DNA from: Acetobacteraceae bacterium
Lineage (GTDB): Bacteria; Pseudomonadota; Alphaproteobacteria; Acetobacterales; Acetobacteraceae
Assembly (NCBI GenBank): GCA_025354865.1
Contig: JANXMB010000143.1
Location: 5,499-69,498 of the forward strand
DNA: 64,000 nt
Direction of reading: 5' to 3'
Shown here: one piece after another, positions 53,693 to 62,907 of the stretch
Layout of the letters: every line of letters starts with the position of its first letter
Position numbering within the stretch: position 1 is the stretch's first letter
Position numbers and translations under genes: made by a program
Notes under the pieces: generated by a model
Told to the model about the DNA's origin: nothing
Databases searched by the model: none
Seen by the model: only the letters and a program-made list of their open reading frames with translations

Positions 53693-54259
53693 ATGGACAT
53701 CGAGGCCGTTGCCGCCATCGCCCCGCCGCAAGGCTTGCCGTTCCAGATCCGCAAGATCGGCCATGTCGTGCTACATGTCGCCGACATCCCCACCTCCACC
53801 AAATTCTACGCCGATGTCATGGGCTTCAAGGTCTCCGACGTTTACGGACCCGAGACGATGCCCGGCGGTGCGGTGTTCATGCGGCTGAACACCGACCATC
53901 ACGGCGTCGCATTGTTTCAGGCCAGCCGCGGCAAGGTGGTCGGCACCGGCATGAACCACATGGCGTTCGAGGTCGGCACCCTGGACGAGGTGGTGCAGTT
54001 CCGAAACCACCTCCGCCGCCTGGAGATCGAGATCGATTTCGCCGGCCGTCGTCGCGCCGGTGTGCAGATCGCAGTCGAATTCCGCGATCCCGATGGGCAT
54101 CGGCTGGAAGTCTACTGGGGCATCGATCAAGTCGGCTCCGAAGGCCGGGTACGGCCGCCGCACGAATGGAAAGGCGCCCCGAGTATCGAGGCGGCGATCG
54201 CCGATCCCGTCGTCGGCCAGGACACGACGTTGCGCGATCCATCCATTCTGGACGGATGA
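53693..54259 (+). CDS. VOC-superfamily protein, paralog 2
   Basis: Collinear with paralog 1 over its full length (GHVV...NHMAFEV...EFRDPDGHRLE, shared C-terminal IEAAIADPVVGQDTTL). 14-nt spacer after paralog 1. Confidence 0.8.
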   Translation: MDIEAVAAIAPPQGLPFQIRKIGHVVLHVADIPTSTKFYADVMGFKVSDVYGPETMPGGAVFMRLNTDHHGVALFQASRGKVVGTGMNHMAFEVGTLDEVVQFRNHLRRLEIEIDFAGRRRAGVQIAVEFRDPDGHRLEVYWGIDQVGSEGRVRPPHEWKGAPSIEAAIADPVVGQDTTLRDPSILDG

Positions 54260-54271
54260 CCATCTAACCCC

Positions 54272-55039
54272 ATGGGCTTCTGGGGCAAGATCGTCGGCGG
54301 CGTGGCAGGCTTTGCCCTGGGTGGCCCCCCCGGTGCCGTGATCGGCGCCGCGCTGGGACATGCGGCAGACTCCGGCGGCATAAAGCTGCCCTTCGGCCAG
54401 AGCACCGTCGCCGGTCCCGCGAAAGTCGCCGCCATGTTCGGCCGGCGCGACCAGCTTTTCGCGATCGATGTCGTGGTCCTCGCCGCCAAACTCGCTCGCT
54501 GCGACGGTCCGGTCAATCGGGAGGAAATCGACGCGTTCAAACGCCAGTTCCGCTTCCCCCCGGAATCGGCGCGCGACATCGGCCGCCTGTTCGACCAGGC
54601 CCGCGACAAGCCAGAGCTATTCCTGCCGTACGCCGAGCAACTGGGGGAGGCGTTTGCGGATAGCCAGACGACGTTGGAGTCGGCTTTGCGTGGCCTGTTC
54701 GCCATCGCGCAGGCGGACGGGCCGATCGTCAAAGCCGAGCTGGCCTATTTGCAGGCGGTTCACCGCGCATTCCGATTGGATCGGCCGGCCTGGGACCGCG
54801 CGAGCGGCACGACCCCGCAAGTCGATCCCGCCGAACCCGACCCCTACACCGTGCTCGGCGTCGGCCCCGATGCCGACAACAAGCAACTGCGCGACACCTG
54901 GCGCCAACTGATGCGGGAAAACCATCCCGACAGCCTCGCCGGCCGGGGTGTCCCGCAAGCCTTCATCGATGGCGCCAGCGAGAAGGTTGCCCGCATCAAC
55001 GCCGCCTGGGACCGCATCAAACGGGAGCGTGGATTGTGA
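54272..55039 (+). CDS. djlA: DjlA-like co-chaperone (Gly-rich N-terminal anchor, TerB-like domain, C-terminal J domain)
   Basis: N-terminus MGFWGKIVGGVAGFALGGPPGAVIGAALG. Central TerB-like repeat (LAAKLARCDGPVNREEIDAF...). C-terminal J domain DPYTVLGVGPDADNKQLRDTWRQLMRENHPD. Confidence 0.75.
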   Translation: MGFWGKIVGGVAGFALGGPPGAVIGAALGHAADSGGIKLPFGQSTVAGPAKVAAMFGRRDQLFAIDVVVLAAKLARCDGPVNREEIDAFKRQFRFPPESARDIGRLFDQARDKPELFLPYAEQLGEAFADSQTTLESALRGLFAIAQADGPIVKAELAYLQAVHRAFRLDRPAWDRASGTTPQVDPAEPDPYTVLGVGPDADNKQLRDTWRQLMRENHPDSLAGRGVPQAFIDGASEKVARINAAWDRIKRERGL

Positions 55040-55749
55040 TTTACGACCGCCCCAGCCCCAACCACGACGCGCGCGGCATGCCGGTCGATATGCTGATGCT
55101 GCATTATACCGGCATGAAAACGGCCAAAGAGGCCATCGATCGGCTGCGCGATCCCGCAGCCGAGGTATCGTCGCATTACGTCGTGGACGAGGACGGCGCC
55201 GTTTTCGCGTTGGTGCCCGAAGATCGCCGCGCCTGGCATGCCGGCATTTCCATCTGGCGGGGGCACAAAGCCCTCAATGCTCGGTCGATCGGGGTCGAAA
55301 TCGTCAACCCCGGTCACGAATGGGGCTATCGGGATTTCCCGGTCCTGCAAATGGCCGCCGTCTGCGATCTAAGCCTGAACATCCTCGCCCGCCATGCCAT
55401 CCCGGCCCGCAACGTGGTCGGCCACAGCGATGTCGCCCCGGATCGCAAACAAGACCCGGGCGAGCGCTTCGGCTGGGCGGATCTCGCCCGCAATGGCGTG
55501 GGACTATGGCCGGACGGGGTGCCCGACCTCGGCACGGGCGCGCCGGTGCGGGATGCTGCCAGCTTGCGGGATGTCCGCCTCGCGCTGACCGAAATCGGCT
55601 ACGATGTCGCGCCGGAGGGGCCGTTGGACCCTGCTTTGGCAATCGTGCTGCGCGCCTTTCAACGCCATTGGCGGCAAGAGGCCATCACCGGCCAAGCCGA
55701 TTCCGGCACCCTCGGCAGGCTGCTCGGCGTACGTCGCCTGTTTACCTGA
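55036..55749 (+). CDS. N-acetylmuramoyl-L-alanine amidase (Amidase_2, AmpD/AmiD-like) with C-terminal peptidoglycan-binding domain
   Basis: The GTG start overlaps the djlA stop (GTGA). HYTG, SSHYVVDEDG, RAWHAG, GVEIVN and GHSDVAPDRKQDPG motifs. C-terminal LRAFQRHW-type PG_binding_1 segment. Confidence 0.85.
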   Translation: MIYDRPSPNHDARGMPVDMLMLHYTGMKTAKEAIDRLRDPAAEVSSHYVVDEDGAVFALVPEDRRAWHAGISIWRGHKALNARSIGVEIVNPGHEWGYRDFPVLQMAAVCDLSLNILARHAIPARNVVGHSDVAPDRKQDPGERFGWADLARNGVGLWPDGVPDLGTGAPVRDAASLRDVRLALTEIGYDVAPEGPLDPALAIVLRAFQRHWRQEAITGQADSGTLGRLLGVRRLFT

Positions 55750-56890
55750 CCAGGGCGCCCAGCAAGGAGTCCAGACGCAGCCGCCCCTCCGCCGTGGCGA
55801 TCAGGCGACCGCTTTCCATAACGATATAGTCGGCGTCAATCGCTTGACGCAGTACGTCGCCGTCGATGGCATCGGCCAAAGCAACCGCAGTGCGGGCTTC
55901 GAAGCGGGCGATGTCGATGCCCTCGGCCAGCCGCAGCCCCATCAACAGCATTTCCTGCGCTTTCTCCTCGGCCCGCAAAACCGTTTCGGTGGTGGAGCCA
56001 TGGCCATCGCGCTCGACCCGTTCCGCCCAGGGTTCCGGCGCGCGATGGCGGCGAGTCGCCCGCAACTGCCCATCGACGGTCACCCGCCCGTGCGCGCCCG
56101 GCCCGATGCCGGCATAATCGGCATAGCGCCAATACGCGAGATTATGCCGGCTCTCGGCGCCCGGTCGGGCATAGTTGGAGATTTCGTACGGCCGCAGGCC
56201 GAACGCGGCGGCTTCCTCGGCGGTGGCCTCGTACATGCGGGCGGCATCGTCGTCGTCCGGCAGGATCAGTTCGCCCTTGCGGTGCAACGCCTCGAACGCG
56301 GTGCCGGGCTCGATGGTCAATTGATACAGCGACAGATGATCCGCCGCCAACGCCAGCGCCGTCCGCAACTCGGCACGCCAGGATGCCTCGGTCTGGTTCG
56401 GCCGAGCATAGATCAGATCGAACGACAGCCGGGGGAAGATGGCGCGGGCGGTTTCCAGCGCGGCGATGGCCTGCGTCGTCGAGTGTTGGCGCCCGAGCGC
56501 CTGGAGTGCGGCGGGATCCAGGCTTTGAACGCCGAGGGAGGCGCGATTGACCCCCGCCTGCCGGAACGCAGCGAGGCGGCCAGATTCGACGCTGGTGGGA
56601 TTGGCTTCCAGGGTGATTTCGATGTCGGGCGTCGGATCGAACAGGCGGAAGGCGTCGTCCAACAAGGCGGCGACGGTTTCAGGCTCCATCAGGCTCGGGG
56701 TGCCGCCGCCGAAGAACACCGATGTCAGCGGCCGACGCCCCAGGCGGGCGGCTTCCCATGCCAGTTCCCGCCGCAACCCGTCGCGAAACCGCGCCTGCGG
56801 AATGCGGTCGCGCACATGCGAGTTGAAATCGCAGTAGGGGCACTTGGACAGGCAAAACGGCCAATGGATATAAAGGGCGAGAGGTTCCAT
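55742..56890 (-). CDS. hemW: radical SAM heme chaperone HemW (oxygen-independent coproporphyrinogen oxidase-like)
   Basis: MEPLALYIHWPFCLSKCPYCDFNS with the CxxxCxxC radical-SAM cluster. 382 aa. 8-nt convergent overlap with the amidase gene. Confidence 0.9.
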   Translation of the reverse strand: MEPLALYIHWPFCLSKCPYCDFNSHVRDRIPQARFRDGLRRELAWEAARLGRRPLTSVFFGGGTPSLMEPETVAALLDDAFRLFDPTPDIEITLEANPTSVESGRLAAFRQAGVNRASLGVQSLDPAALQALGRQHSTTQAIAALETARAIFPRLSFDLIYARPNQTEASWRAELRTALALAADHLSLYQLTIEPGTAFEALHRKGELILPDDDDAARMYEATAEEAAAFGLRPYEISNYARPGAESRHNLAYWRYADYAGIGPGAHGRVTVDGQLRATRRHRAPEPWAERVERDGHGSTTETVLRAEEKAQEMLLMGLRLAEGIDIARFEARTAVALADAIDGDVLRQAIDADYIVMESGRLIATAEGRLRLDSLLGALVR

Positions 56891-57001: not shown

Positions 57002-57051
57002 CCTAGCGGTCAGAATCCGACGGTTCTTTTCGTCGGATTCTGACCGCTAGG
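57002..57051 (-). terminator. perfect 21-bp stem / 8-nt loop hairpin; probable intrinsic terminator of the GNAT gene
   Basis: Arms CCTAGCGGTCAGAATCCGACG (57002-57022) and CGTCGGATTCTGACCGCTAGG (57031-57051), loop GTTCTTTT. The stem contains the GNAT stop codon (57047-57049). On the minus strand the stem is followed by CTTTGATTT. Confidence 0.55.
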
Positions 57052-57619
57052 TGCGGACGTGCGCGGGGATACGTAACCCCAGCCGGGTCGGCACATTCCA
57101 TTGTTCCCGCGCCTGTCGCACGGGGCGGAAGCCGGAGCGGATATAGGTCGGCAGCGCGCGCGGATGGTCGGCGGTGCAAGTATTGACCGTCATCCCCTTG
57201 GCTCCGGCCGCCCAGGCGGCGTCGATCGCATGACGCAGAAAACGGTAACCGACGCCGGTGCCGACGACGCGCGGCATCAGGCCGAAATAGCTCAGGTTCA
57301 TATCGGGCCAATGGCGGCCGTCCAGCTCGAAAAATCCGGCAGGCTCGCCGCCTTCGTACAGCGTGTGGATCGACACGTCCGGATCGGCCAGGAGATCGGC
57401 GAGTTCGTGGTCGGACAGGGTGCGCCGCAACCACCAGACATAGTCGGCGCCGACGGTATCGTAGAGATACCGATAGAACGGCACGCTCGCCTGTGCCGCC
57501 CGAACGATCTGGTAGCCCGGGGGAAGGGCCGGCGCCCGCTCGGCTGGCGGCCGATCCATTCGCAAAAAAGTGACCGTGACAGTCACCCTCGTCACCGCTT
57601 CCATCCTGCCCGTCCGCAT
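57047..57619 (-). CDS. GNAT-family N-acetyltransferase
   Basis: ORF 57047..57931(-) trimmed to the ATG at 57617-57619 (alternative ATG at 57604). Acetyl-CoA-binding segment RVVGTGVGYRFLRHAI (Q/RxxGxG/A type). Confidence 0.7.
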   Translation of the reverse strand: MRTGRMEAVTRVTVTVTFLRMDRPPAERAPALPPGYQIVRAAQASVPFYRYLYDTVGADYVWWLRRTLSDHELADLLADPDVSIHTLYEGGEPAGFFELDGRHWPDMNLSYFGLMPRVVGTGVGYRFLRHAIDAAWAAGAKGMTVNTCTADHPRALPTYIRSGFRPVRQAREQWNVPTRLGLRIPAHVRT

Positions 57620-57787
57620 TGCTTGAGCGCCTTGTTTAATCGCATTCCGCCGATGGAGCGAGATGGCATGCCCGCATCGGTGCGCCAGTTCGTTGTTGCG
57701 CGTACGATATCTCGATGCTAGGTTTTTTCTGGGTACTAACGATCCAGCGCCGTACAAGCTGAATCGAACGATAAGGGGAATGTCGCG

Positions 57788-59647
57788 ATGACTCTCAGCC
57801 GTTTGTCGATTGTCACGGCCATCGCGGTCATGGCGTTGATGGGATCGGGCCGAGCGGAAACCGCCGGTTGGACGGATGTGCCGCAGGGTTGGTCGGATGC
57901 GCAACGTGTTGCGTGGTGGACCGCGAGCCAAGGGTCTCGGCTGATTCCTCAGGCCTGGCTGGATGCGCTGGAACAGCCCGACAGCACAGCGATGTTCCTG
58001 GATCCCGCTTACATCGCGTCCTTCCGCTATCTGCCGAACCCGACTTCCGGCTGGACCAGCCCTGATCGAAATTGCCCGTACGACCCGGCGATCCCCCTCG
58101 GGTTTACCGTCGATTGCCAGTCGGACGCCAATCTCAGCAATTCAAAGTTGCGCTGGAAAGCAAAGCAGGGGGAGAACGAACCCTGGGTCGGGATGAATTG
58201 TTCCGCCTGCCATACCGCCGAATTGACTTATAAATCGACCCGCCTGCGGGTGGACGGCGCCCCCACGTTGGCCGATTTCCAGTCGTTCATGGAAGCGCTG
58301 AACAAAGCGCTGGGACAGATCGCCGATCCCAGAGATCCCGGTAAATTCAATCGTTTCGCCAACCGGGTGCTGGGACTCAGTGCGTCCGCCGAGGACACGG
58401 GGCTGCTGATCACCGCTCTGGCGCAACTGAACAAGTGGAACAGCGATCTCGCGAAATTGAACAATCCGGGCGGCCTGCGGTACGGCTTCGGGCGTTTGGA
58501 TGCAATTGGCAACATCTTCAACAAAGTCGCCCTGATCGCGAACCCGGCCGACGTGGCGCATCAGAATGCCAATCCGTCCGATGCGCCGGTCAGCTATCCG
58601 TTCCTTTGGAACGTGCCGCAGTTGAACAAGGTGGAGTGGAACGGTAGCGCACCGAATATCGATCTGAACGACATCCGAGCGGGCGCCATGGTTCGCAACA
58701 CCGGGGAGGTGGTGGGCGTGTTCGCCGATATCGCCATCCGCAACAAACCCGGTTTCGCGCAGGGCTATACATCCAGCATCGACCTGCCCAATCTGGTGAA
58801 AATGGAAACGCAGCTGACCTCGCTGCAACCGCCGGCATGGCCTGCGGTCCTTCCGGCCATCGACAAAGGACTGGCCGACACCGGTAGCGGGCTGTTCAAA
58901 TCCCAATGCGCATCCTGCCACAGCGTGCCATCGTCACGCGCCAATCTGGCCGAAAAATATACTGTGACCCTGCAACCGGTCATGGCCGGACCCGATCCGG
59001 CGAATACCGACATGTGGATGGCCTGCAATGCCATTCTGGATTGGGCGAATACCGGGCTGTTCAAGGGCAACGCGACGCAGTTCGTCAATCAGACCACCTT
59101 CGGCGCCACCTCCAACAGCTTCACCCTGACCGGCAATGCGGCGTTGGGCGCGCTGCTGGACCGAAAGCTCGACCTTGCGAGCGCCGCGTTCCAGGGCCTG
59201 TTCGGCTTCTCCCAGGGGTTGCCGCTGCCGAGCAAAAAGATCTTCCAGGCCGGGTTGTCGCCGAAACAGGTCCGCGCGGCCGCTTGCAAGGCCTATAAGG
59301 AAGACGATCCTGCCAATCCCAAAATGGTCTACAAAGGCCGGCCGTTGCAGGGCATCTGGGCGACGGCCCCCTATCTGCACAACGGCTCCGTCGCCAACCT
59401 GCGAGAATTGTTGCTGCCACCGGCCCAACGCAAAACCGCGTTCGCGCTTGGCACGCGGGAGTTCGATCCGGTGGATGTTGGGTTCTCGACCGATCCCGCA
59501 GCGCCGGGGAACACCTTCCAGTTCCGCACCAAGGACGCCAATGGCGTTGCGATCGACGGCAATTCCAACGCCGGGCACGACTACAACAACGCCGGCCTGA
59601 AGGAAGCCGATATTCGGGCGCTGATCGAATACATGAAGACGCTGTAA
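57788..59647 (+). CDS. secreted di-heme cytochrome c peroxidase/MauG-like protein
   Basis: AAGGGGA SD. Signal peptide. Two CxxCH heme motifs (CSACH, CASCH). CCP/MauG-type segment WATAPYLHNGSVANLRELL. 619 aa with a ~130-aa extension before heme 1. Confidence 0.75.
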   Translation: MTLSRLSIVTAIAVMALMGSGRAETAGWTDVPQGWSDAQRVAWWTASQGSRLIPQAWLDALEQPDSTAMFLDPAYIASFRYLPNPTSGWTSPDRNCPYDPAIPLGFTVDCQSDANLSNSKLRWKAKQGENEPWVGMNCSACHTAELTYKSTRLRVDGAPTLADFQSFMEALNKALGQIADPRDPGKFNRFANRVLGLSASAEDTGLLITALAQLNKWNSDLAKLNNPGGLRYGFGRLDAIGNIFNKVALIANPADVAHQNANPSDAPVSYPFLWNVPQLNKVEWNGSAPNIDLNDIRAGAMVRNTGEVVGVFADIAIRNKPGFAQGYTSSIDLPNLVKMETQLTSLQPPAWPAVLPAIDKGLADTGSGLFKSQCASCHSVPSSRANLAEKYTVTLQPVMAGPDPANTDMWMACNAILDWANTGLFKGNATQFVNQTTFGATSNSFTLTGNAALGALLDRKLDLASAAFQGLFGFSQGLPLPSKKIFQAGLSPKQVRAAACKAYKEDDPANPKMVYKGRPLQGIWATAPYLHNGSVANLRELLLPPAQRKTAFALGTREFDPVDVGFSTDPAAPGNTFQFRTKDANGVAIDGNSNAGHDYNNAGLKEADIRALIEYMKTL

Positions 59648-59661
59648 CGTGATCGATCCTG

Positions 59662-60867
59662 TTACGCGATCGCAGGGTTCTCCGCCCGATCCGCGAAACC
59701 GATCGTGCCGGTGCCAGCCGTGCCGGTGCCAGCCGCGCCGGTGCGATCGAAAACGACGAACCGGTTGGCAAAAAGGGGCAGACCGAGGTTCGACTGCCCG
59801 TTGAGCGTGCCGTTGTCGCTCACGATCGCCAACATGGCCGCGCCCGCCGCCCCGACGTCGAACTGCCAGTAATCCTTGGGCGCGACATCGATCACGACCG
59901 CCGCGCCGTCGCTACCTCGCAGGATAAAACCGAGCACCGGCCACTGGGTCAGATCGATCCGGGTCTGGTCGAAATTGGCGCCGGCGGATTGCAGGTAGGC
60001 CTGCAACGTCTGCGATACCTGCGGATCGAACGCGCGCAACGCATCGAGCAGCCGATCGAACAGCGCGCGATCCAACATCAGATAGGGCGACCCGCTATCC
60101 ACGATCGCGGTGGAGGCGACCGCGCCGCCGGGTGCAACTGGGGACACCGCGATCGAACGGTCGCCAACCCGCAACGACATCAAATCGACGCTGTAATAAC
60201 GCTCGTGCACGACGGCGATTTTGGCGATTGGGCCGACGTATAAATCGGTGCAATCGGCCCCGCCGCCCAGCACAAAAAGCCCCTGGTTTGCGGGATCGGC
60301 GGCCGGATCGTCCAAAACCTCCCGCGTCATGGACCGCTGCACGGCGAAGGCGAATGTGTCGGCGACCAGACCGGCGGCGACCAATCGATCCGAAAACGGC
60401 ACGATAGCGGCGGGCTGCCCCAAGGGGAGTAGGTCCGCCGTGTATTTGGTCTCCCAGGTATTGGCCGGCATCCGGTAGCCGGTGTTGAGCGCGGCGAACG
60501 CCAGACCGAAAATGCCATCGGCCCGATCGAAGGTGCCCGGTGGATTATCGTAGGCGACGGCAAGATCGGTGCCGGCCAGCTTTGCCACGGGGGCGCCGGG
60601 ACCGGCGACCAATCCGACCGACGCCTGCACGATGGCGGCATGAAATTCGCCGGACCCGAACGATTCTTTTGCCAGAATTTGGGTTGTGGTCACGCCCGCG
60701 TCGCCAGTGGGGTCGTAGATCGCGCCATCGACCACCAACACACCGCTACCGGTGTCGAGGATGACGTTGACCCGCTGCTGCTGGCTCCCCACTGCGATCG
60801 GCATCGCAAACTGTCCGCCGGTGAGCGTGTTGGTTATGGGCACGCGGACAATTTCGGGCACGATCAT
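59662..60867 (-). CDS. pepsin-like (family A1) aspartic protease homolog, leaderless
   Basis: ILDTGSG (60742-60762) and IVDSGSP (60085-60105) catalytic-type motifs in the two halves. Flap-like SFGSGE, GIFGLAFAAL and C-terminal FVVFDR match pepsin landmarks. GGAGG SD sits 6 nt before the ATG at 60865-60867. An in-frame stop lies at 60925-60927. Confidence 0.75.
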   Translation of the reverse strand: MIVPEIVRVPITNTLTGGQFAMPIAVGSQQQRVNVILDTGSGVLVVDGAIYDPTGDAGVTTTQILAKESFGSGEFHAAIVQASVGLVAGPGAPVAKLAGTDLAVAYDNPPGTFDRADGIFGLAFAALNTGYRMPANTWETKYTADLLPLGQPAAIVPFSDRLVAAGLVADTFAFAVQRSMTREVLDDPAADPANQGLFVLGGGADCTDLYVGPIAKIAVVHERYYSVDLMSLRVGDRSIAVSPVAPGGAVASTAIVDSGSPYLMLDRALFDRLLDALRAFDPQVSQTLQAYLQSAGANFDQTRIDLTQWPVLGFILRGSDGAAVVIDVAPKDYWQFDVGAAGAAMLAIVSDNGTLNGQSNLGLPLFANRFVVFDRTGAAGTGTAGTGTIGFADRAENPAIA

Positions 60868-60951
60868 TCCCTCCTCCTGAGAGGGGGAACGATATCGGCC
60901 CTCGGCACAGATGCGCCACCGAAATTATCGGTGAGGCGGCGGCGGAGTGTA

Positions 60952-62907
<1,956 letters not shown>

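Follow-up and report, generated by a model that had tools for sequence, protein, structure and literature searches.

A leaderless bacterial pepsin homologue belongs to a clade whose genes are paired with a convergent di-haem cytochrome gene

We analysed a stretch of 64,000 nucleotides (nt) from an Acetobacteraceae bacterium (assembly GCA_025354865.1, contig JANXMB010000143.1, positions 5,499 to 69,498), referred to here as the window, and in particular an open reading frame (ORF) that encodes a homologue of the pepsin family (A1) of aspartic proteases. An earlier note on this DNA had described the protease as a leaderless pepsin-like protein lying directly downstream of dnaG and rpoD. It had overlooked the gene that proved to be the conserved partner of the protease, a cytochrome gene at 57788-59647 that converges on it. 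The genes and spacers at the locus, in window coordinates, are listed below.

57788-59647, (+) strand: RoxA-like di-haem cytochrome c gene, 619 amino acids (aa), matching NF040606 and PF21419, convergent with the A1 gene
59648-59661, no strand assigned: spacer of 14 nt between the convergent stop codons
59662-60867, (-) strand: ORF of the leaderless homologue of the pepsin family (A1), with 401 aa if translation starts at the ATG and 399 aa if it starts at the GTG at 60861
60868-60951, (-) strand: spacer of 84 nt from the rpoD stop to the A1 ATG, with no canonical terminator and no sigma-70 promoter in the scan
60952-62907, (-) strand: rpoD, the upstream neighbour on the same strand, which is context and not a conserved partner

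Profile matches and a predicted structure place the product of the A1 ORF in family A1 far beyond chance resemblance. A Pfam profile search, a check that the earlier note had proposed, matched PF00026 (Asp) at E=1.3e-10 with 41.7 bits against a cut-off of 19.9. The TAXi_C profile was also above threshold (26.5 bits versus 23.9), and NCBIfam held no model matching the protease. The best sequence relative in the Protein Data Bank (PDB), as found by phmmer, was BACE2 (E=4.8e-8), followed by BACE1, with identity to BACE of 17-18%. Structure prediction, proposed in the same place, was carried out with AlphaFold2 (AF2) on 102 homologues, and the resulting model had a mean predicted local distance difference test score (pLDDT) of 94.9 and a predicted template modelling score (pTM) of 0.93. 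The model has the two-lobed beta-barrel fold of pepsin. When it was compared with the PDB by Foldseek, 555 matches were obtained at E<=0.001, and the 50 best of these were BACE1 entries and yeast proteinase A, with template modelling (TM) scores of 0.63-0.79; the top matches had an E of about 1e-21 and TM scores of 0.65-0.79. This global match implies that the two catalytic Asp carboxylates would converge on one cleft.

We then located the active-site residues and a repeat in the coding sequence.

60754-60756, (-) strand: codon of catalytic Asp38 in the D-T-G-S of the N-lobe, the Asp being invariant in the 102 aligned homologues
60658-60660, (-) strand: codon of flap Phe70, equivalent to pepsin Tyr75 by alignment
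60097-60099, (-) strand: codon of catalytic Asp257 in the D-S-G-S of the C-lobe, the Asp again invariant in the 102 aligned homologues
59704-59733, (-) strand: exact 15-nt tandem duplication (gctggcaccggcacg twice; AGTGT AGTGT) within the protease's C-terminal tail

Both lobes of the single polypeptide carry a catalytic Asp in an Asp-Thr/Ser-Gly motif, with D38 lying within VNVILDTGSGVLVV (VNVILD38TGSGVLVV) and D257 within TAIVDSGSPYLML (TAIVD257SGSPYLML). Residues D38, G40, D257 and G259, the psi-loop glycines G121 and G362, and the pair W309-P310 are invariant across the 102 homologues. Each psi-loop has a Gly preceded by two further loop residues, I119-F120-G121 in the N-lobe and N360-L361-G362 in the C-lobe, and the hydrophobic-hydrophobic-Gly pattern can be recognized in both; the C-lobe loop reads I-L-G in most relatives, and the Asn at its first position in the sub-clade of the window is a mild deviation. 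The pepsin signature claimed in the earlier note, consisting of the two Asp motifs, GIFGLA and NRFVVFDR, was present in full, and the protein has a single cysteine (C206) and hence no pepsin-type disulfides, as that note had also said. Its observation that Phe replaces pepsin Tyr75 in the flap was right as to the residue type, but the equivalent position is F70 in S-F-G-S-G and not the Phe of 'GEF'; the window protease thus lacks the flap Tyr75. The five residues AGTGT that the duplication added to the C-terminal tail are not present in relatives in the protein alignment. The tail is flexible, and pLDDT is low there.

The N-terminus of the protease had been described as fixed at the ATG. An in-frame TAA (60927-60925) is indeed the 20th codon upstream of the ATG, and no ATG, GTG, TTG or CTG intervenes. 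The ATG is, however, not the only candidate start.

60859-60861, (-) strand: alternative start GTG, codon 3 of the ORF, aligned with the start codon of all relatives in DNA and protein alignments

These alignments indicate that the GTG at 60861 is probably the homologous start, giving the N-terminus M-P-E-I-V-R and a protein of 399 aa, and the ATG two codons upstream is likewise usable. MxxxxRxPITN is the N-terminus of every homologue and falls, in the alignment, on the first strand of mature pepsin and BACE. Because the chain starts where mature pepsin and BACE start, whichever of the two codons is used, a signal peptide and a propeptide are excluded, as the earlier note had proposed. The absence of a signal peptide, a propeptide and disulfide cysteines supports the view of that note that the protein is a cytoplasmic pepsin-fold enzyme, which is the straightforward reading of the PF00026 match, the two lobes, the two Asp motifs and the missing leader.

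The convergent gene encodes a predicted secreted protein with a Sec-type signal peptide. It matched the NF040606 model 'di-heme cytochrome c peroxidase' at E=4.9e-160 (534 bits, with the cut-off at 150, over profile positions 1-524) and the RoxA-like_Cyt-c domain PF21419, with the motif WATAPYLHNGSV. Two haem motifs, C138xxC141H142 and C374xxC377H378, are formed by residues that are invariant in 53 homologues. The latex oxygenase RoxA (4b2n) was the only significant PDB relative of the cytochrome, both by sequence and by fold. The window protein shares with RoxA and the MauG/bacterial di-haem peroxidase superfamily the two CxxCH sites, the signal peptide and a length near 620 aa, but RoxA is distant from it (16% identity, TM 0.45), and the window cytochrome lies far below the RoxA and RoxB equivalog cut-offs. 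The cytochrome family comprises at least 1269 proteins at E<=1e-20, which makes it about ten times larger than the A1 family. PADLOC gave no match for the protease or the cytochrome, and the two genes are therefore not a catalogued defence system.

In order to compare genomic contexts, we gathered 60 related loci, numbered here with the prefix L, and located the homologues of A1, cytochrome, rpoD and the nearby GNAT acetyltransferase in them by tblastn. A convergent cytochrome gene lies directly downstream of A1 in 27 distinct loci, which make up every assessable locus of one clade. The orientation is always tail to tail, and the distance between the stop codons ranges from -17 to +265 nt. The two ORFs overlap by 4 nt in L005 (7182-7185), L006, L011, L020 and L037 and by 17 nt in L021. 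Because the spacer between the genes is so short, there is no room for terminators between the convergent stops, and the 3' ends of both mRNAs must therefore overlap. In the relatives whose ORFs themselves overlap, the two transcripts must be of complementary sequence at the 3' end.

The 23 distinct cytochrome-linked A1 proteins formed one clade in a neighbor-joining tree, with a bootstrap value of 196/200. All 12 A1 sequences that had enough downstream DNA but no cytochrome gene, including the Lysobacter protein, fell outside this clade. A reverse test was carried out with cytochrome homologues picked only for their long contigs, and their identities are relative to the window protein. Homologues at 59% and 51% identity had a convergent A1 gene, in new contexts, and none was found at 45%. 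The pair occurs in at least six different flanking contexts, one of the loci coming from a betaproteobacterial Nitrosovibrio metagenome-assembled genome (MAG), and persists to identities as low as about 40% for A1 and 51% for the cytochrome, at which synonymous sites are saturated. The distance matrices of the A1 and cytochrome proteins were correlated with a Mantel r of 0.87, a value reached by 0 of 2000 permutations. Since the linked proteins form a single clade, the reverse test returned the same pair, the matrices are congruent and the flanks change around the two genes, these comparisons indicate that the A1/cytochrome module arose once, has been passed on as one unit and shifts from one genomic context to another.

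The adjacency might instead be an inherited gene order without functional meaning, with the protease acting by itself, for example as a cytoplasmic enzyme activated by stress or acid. The convergent genes are not co-transcribed, their products are predicted to reside in different compartments, and the loci from named organisms are mostly from Acetobacteraceae and Rhodospirillales, so that shared ancestry contributes to the pattern. Transient cytoplasmic acidification has been proposed by the authors of the shewasin D study as a means of activating that enzyme, a bacterial relative (PMC4814920). When the upstream regions of the A1 and cytochrome genes were searched across contexts for a regulatory motif in common, none was found, a fact that would also fit unlinked genes; GATATC-like words that recur in some loci were rejected, as their enrichment reflected spacers that are richer in AT than the coding background. 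However, the pair has outlasted the flank changes and deep divergence described above and is present in the betaproteobacterial MAG, and its orientation and tight spacing are always kept. The pairing also coincides with a clade-specific change in the flap of the protease, and among the at least 1269 cytochromes only the A1-linked branch (at least 51% identity in the sampled cases) carries this neighbour. We therefore regard a meaningless adjacency as unlikely. No report of a protease paired with a RoxA-like di-haem protein was found in the searchable literature, and the clade-wide pairing with a di-haem cytochrome, rather than with rpoD, looks new.

The earlier note had suggested coupling to dnaG and rpoD, in which case the protease would be the third cistron of a dnaG-rpoD unit with a housekeeping role tied to core gene expression. 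The genes lie on the same strand, the gap of 84 nt to the rpoD stop was confirmed, the spacer showed no canonical intrinsic terminator, and the closest relatives (L005, L006, L011, L013 and L020) retain the rpoD-A1 arrangement. However, rpoD lies upstream of A1 only in this closest sub-clade, in which A1 identity is 53-70%, the whole region is syntenic, and the window rpoD is 97-100% identical to that of the syntenic Rhodospirillales and Acetobacteraceae MAGs. The rpoD adjacency is absent outside the sub-clade, and the same A1/cytochrome pair occurs in five other contexts; the neighbours of A1 there are rpsD, a peptidoglycan (PG)-binding protein gene, gatCAB, or TetR/SDR genes. Upstream of A1, the genes found elsewhere are rpsD with a small ORF for two transmembrane segments, a PG-binding protein gene, a 136-aa ORF by ruvX, or an FAA-hydrolase gene. 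The adjacency is interrupted in L012, an Acetobacteraceae MAG, by a defence-type gene for an AriA/NsnB/GajA-like ABC-type ATPase (553 aa, 410-2071, (+) strand) between rpoD and A1, and L013 has an additional perfect GC-rich hairpin after rpoD.

The spacer itself carries two stems and a conserved block, and one of the stems involves the ribosome-binding site of the protease gene.

60863-60893, (-) strand: stem-loop from fold prediction, pairing the Shine-Dalgarno (SD) sequence and the ATG (AGGAGGGAAUG) with an upstream anti-SD (UUCCCCCUCU)

The earlier note had seen only a weak hairpin in this spacer, where we instead found a strong stem that occludes the SD and the start codon. The stem is kept in L005, L011 and L013 with changes on both arms and was not seen in distant loci. 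Rfam, searched over the whole window at gathering thresholds, gave no match, and no described RNA family therefore covers the stem, which may act in the control of translation. Consensus scans for promoters and terminators yielded about as many matches as expected by chance and none within the rpoD-A1 spacer, sigma-70 consensus scans being a poor guide in Alphaproteobacteria. The conserved block of the spacer and the SD-occluding stem that belongs to the protease gene itself suggest separate control. Read-through from rpoD may take place in this organism, but nothing points to a functional tie that is conserved. With the adjacency confined to the closest relatives, we consider a role for the protease within a dnaG-rpoD transcription unit very unlikely.

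Several neighbouring ORFs were noted in the course of these comparisons. A predicted protein of 66-68 aa with two transmembrane segments (MITRGDIxWLG...GQPWGW...), without a Pfam match, is encoded between rpsD and A1 in L001 (7729-7935) and L009 (5649-5849) and also in L014, L016, L017, L021-23, L028, L032, L036 and L038. It is 77-98% identical across loci, a much higher level of conservation than that of the protease. Since it is restricted to the rpsD context and the window lacks it, we regard it as synteny and rejected it as a partner or precursor of the protease. The window also encodes, divergently from the cytochrome gene, a GNAT acetyltransferase of 185 aa (57047-57604, (-) strand) as delimited by homologues and Pfam, the mechanical ORF at 57047-57931 giving 294 aa from a TTG; this gene is conserved only in the sub-clade with the rpoD context. 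The region 53693-56890 holds ordinary housekeeping-like genes, named from the Pfam lists of the syntenic L005, and these encode a glyoxalase-fold protein (53693-54259), a DjlA-like TerB/DnaJ protein (54272-55039), an Amidase_2 protein (55036-55749) and a HemN/HemW-like radical SAM protein (55742-56890, (-) strand).

Relatives of the protease are few. Among 5.8 billion proteins, a word-indexed search retrieved 111, nearly all of 380-400 aa, with PF00026 and named 'hypothetical'; at the far end of this list stood Shewanella and Lysobacter proteins that bear the NCBI name 'pepsin-like aspartic protease'. An exhaustive phmmer search over 1.84 billion representatives at 50% identity found 276 at E<=0.001 and 81 at E<=1e-30. 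A scan of a genome collection relied on a tight alignment of homologues, as a single-protein query matched nothing. The close relatives in named genomes come from Rhodospirillales and Acetobacteraceae MAGs, Rhodopila MAGs, the Nitrosovibrio MAG and Acidisphaera sp. S103 (L014), which is listed as a named strain and not as a MAG and carries the A1/cytochrome pair. Two other clades of leaderless A1 proteins, 33-44% identical (L010, L043, L045-L053; L027, L035, L039, L044), have neither a cytochrome nor a borosin neighbour at their loci. Downstream, L035, L041 and L044 have in common a 275-aa ORF without a Pfam match. The earlier note had asked whether the gene was acquired by horizontal transfer; a recent transfer from a eukaryote was rejected, since the gene shows no compositional anomaly, has a bacterial SD and belongs to a deep bacterial clade with conserved bacterial synteny.

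A leaderless cytoplasmic bacterial pepsin is an already known, rare kind of protein. Rawlings and Bateman described in 2009 seven bacterial pepsin homologues without signal peptides, which had a predicted cytoplasmic location and memapsins (BACE) as their closest relatives (PMC2761423). Shewasins A and D are monomeric, pepstatin-sensitive and dependent on the Asp dyad, and native shewasin D is mainly cytoplasmic (PMC4814920). They are of the same family and fold as the window protease, lack signal peptide, propeptide and disulfides, and are BACE-like among eukaryotic relatives. Their N-terminal layout is nearly identical (D37/Y69 in shewasin, D38/F70 in the window protease), and the window protease retrieved Shewanella homologues at E=1e-46 and 3e-31 (2e-39 by BLASTP). 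Its identity to the Shewanella homologue in the BLASTP alignment is nevertheless only about 25%, and it has 401 aa without the large inserts of the shewasins (429-587 aa) and Phe in the flap where they have Tyr. The shewasin-type Ala after the second DxG, the Thr218Ala change described for homologues from marine bacteria, is not found either, this residue being Ser260 in the window protease and variable in its clade. The window clade occurs in Acetobacteraceae, Rhodospirillales and the Nitrosovibrio MAG, whereas the shewasins are from marine Gammaproteobacteria, and unlike the shewasins it has no borosin cluster at the locus and has the convergent RoxA-like cytochrome as partner.

Two further comparisons can be made. 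BACE1 and BACE2 (memapsins) have the bilobal beta-barrel fold and the DTGS and DSG motifs in common with the window protease, but BACE, a secreted glycoprotein anchored in the membrane, has a pro-segment and disulfides, whereas the window protease has none of these features and is predicted to be cytoplasmic. Smed_3492 of Sinorhizobium medicae and Mmwyl1_1642 of Marinomonas, the second group of bacterial A1 homologues in the 2009 description and compared here on that basis, are also bacterial and leaderless with Phe in the flap, and one of them is alphaproteobacterial. That group lacks hydrophobic-hydrophobic-Gly psi-loops and was judged probably inactive (PMC2761423), whereas the psi-loop glycines of the window clade are invariant. 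The spacing also differs, with D53/F97/D243 in 368 aa there and D38/F70/D257 in the window protease.

The statement in the earlier note that the physiological roles of bacterial A1 peptidases are unknown has been overtaken by a 2024 preprint, according to which shewasin A (SamP) is a peptidase of borosins, a class of peptides that are ribosomally synthesized and then post-translationally modified (RiPPs), and cleaves an N-methylated precursor near neutral pH (bioRxiv 10.1101/2024.01.09.574750). Among 441 A1 peptidases surveyed there, 267 were within borosin clusters and 56 more had a cluster elsewhere in the organism (bioRxiv 10.1101/2024.01.09.574750). The window protease might accordingly be a RiPP maturase of the SamP/shewasin type whose gene cluster lies elsewhere in the genome, with the cytochrome neighbour being irrelevant. 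Its leaderless form without propeptide or disulfides fits such a role, and a distant member of the family does lie in such a cluster: in Lysobacter tyrosinilyticus (L018, 5001-8516) we found A1, a PF13302 acetyltransferase, a TP_methylase and three peptides of 65-91 aa beginning MSxVVQFLE. This cluster is of the borosin type and agrees with the published context of SamP.

However, when the Lysobacter methyltransferase, acetyltransferase and precursor peptides were searched by tblastn against the 64-kb window and the 60 loci, they matched only L018, and no TP_methylase was present among the precomputed Pfam matches of the cytochrome-linked loci. The linked proteins form a separate clade, with the low identity to a Shewanella homologue given above, and the shewasin-type Ala is not conserved in them. 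The neighbourhoods of the minority of A1 peptidases outside borosin clusters showed no RiPP signature in the preprint (bioRxiv 10.1101/2024.01.09.574750). Until recently no bacterial pepsin had a known role, and the one that has been assigned, borosin maturation, does not fit the window clade, and we consider a distant RiPP cluster quite improbable as its explanation.

The cytochrome-linked clade also differs from its relatives around the active site. The flap residue is Phe in 21 of the 23 cytochrome-linked proteins and Tyr in 20 of 20 others, including those of Lysobacter and Shewanella. Directly after the second D-S-G, the unlinked clades always have Thr, the two Shewanella sequences have Ala, and the linked clade has A, S, T, N or C. 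T39 is kept in 23/23 and S258 in 22/23 linked proteins. The protease has also diverged faster than the genes around it: at an rpoD identity of 97-98%, the cytochromes were 80-88% and the GNAT proteins 84-90% identical, and the A1 proteins only 54-71%. Ratios of nonsynonymous to synonymous substitution rates (dN/dS, by the Nei-Gojobori method), which are rough because synonymous sites are near saturation, were 0.18-0.33 for A1, 0.07-0.11 for the cytochrome, 0.06-0.09 for GNAT and 0.02-0.03 for rpoD. These values point to an A1 gene that is under purifying selection and yet fast-evolving, with an unchanged catalytic dyad. Fast evolution was noted also for the Shewanella A1 proteins by Rawlings and Bateman (PMC2761423).

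Such changes raise the question of whether the protein is a catalytically weakened or dead pepsin fold that has been reused for binding or regulation, as in the plant TAXI-type xylanase inhibitors. The TAXi_C match above the cut-off would agree with this, as would the replacement of Tyr75 by Phe, the unconstrained residue after DSG, the N-L-G psi-loop and a dN/dS that is 2-3 times that of neighbouring genes. In contrast, both Asp residues and the glycines of the DTG and DSG motifs and of the psi-loops are invariant in 102 sequences, a pattern that would be difficult to account for if the protein did not catalyse. Members of family A1 are said to have Phe commonly in place of Tyr75, although this change weakened rhizopuspepsin (PMC2761423). 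We judge the reuse of a weakened or dead fold to be highly improbable.

On balance, we think it reasonably probable that the window ORF encodes a cytoplasmic, substrate-specific aspartic endopeptidase of the leaderless bacterial A1 branch, which forms one module with the di-haem protein and is not tied to dnaG-rpoD. By the established chemistry of family A1, it would be an active monomeric endopeptidase whose two carboxylates activate the water that attacks the scissile bond, with the substrate held under a flap that carries Phe70 instead of Tyr. The lack of an export signal and the location of shewasin D suggest that the enzyme would act in the cytoplasm. The precedent of SamP/shewasin A and the lack of zymogen control suggest narrow, substrate-specific processing rather than bulk proteolysis.

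Several observations weigh against this reading. The flap Tyr75 has become Phe, and no natural homologue with Phe75 had been shown to be active as of PMC2761423. The residue after DSG is unconstrained in the clade, and N-L-G stands for I-L-G in the sub-clade of the window; taken with the elevated dN/dS, these changes could reflect a function that is weakened or altered. The cytochrome has a Sec signal and c-type haem motifs, whereas A1 has no export signal. A direct link between the two, as enzyme and substrate or as a complex, therefore has a topology problem, because the cytochrome matures in the periplasm and A1 is not exported. Finally, convergent genes do not form an operon, and no shared upstream motif was found across contexts.

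The most informative hint to the role of the protease is its conserved module with the RoxA-like di-haem protein. Candidate couplings are a shared pathway or substrate, control of a precursor of the haem protein by the protease, or antisense cross-regulation. MauG-type di-haem enzymes modify proteins, and by analogy a shared protein or peptide substrate would be cleaved by the protease and then oxidised by the haem enzyme. We tentatively suggest, as a possibility and not as our expectation, that the protease and the cytochrome are a previously unrecognised two-gene functional module, in which a precursor or shared substrate is processed or in which the 3' overlap makes expression of the two genes mutually exclusive.

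Removing the rpoD operon from the account disposes of a tempting but unsupported story of a pepsin wired into core gene expression. Bacterial pepsins are rare, and they bear on the debate over the origin of the eukaryotic pepsin/BACE family. The di-haem gene is the only constant neighbour of the clade, and the change of the flap from Tyr to Phe maps to the same node, which provides a testable lead on the function of both orphan families. If true, the functional module would be the first functional handle on the non-borosin bacterial pepsins and on the NF040606 di-haem 'peroxidases', a family of more than 1200 members.

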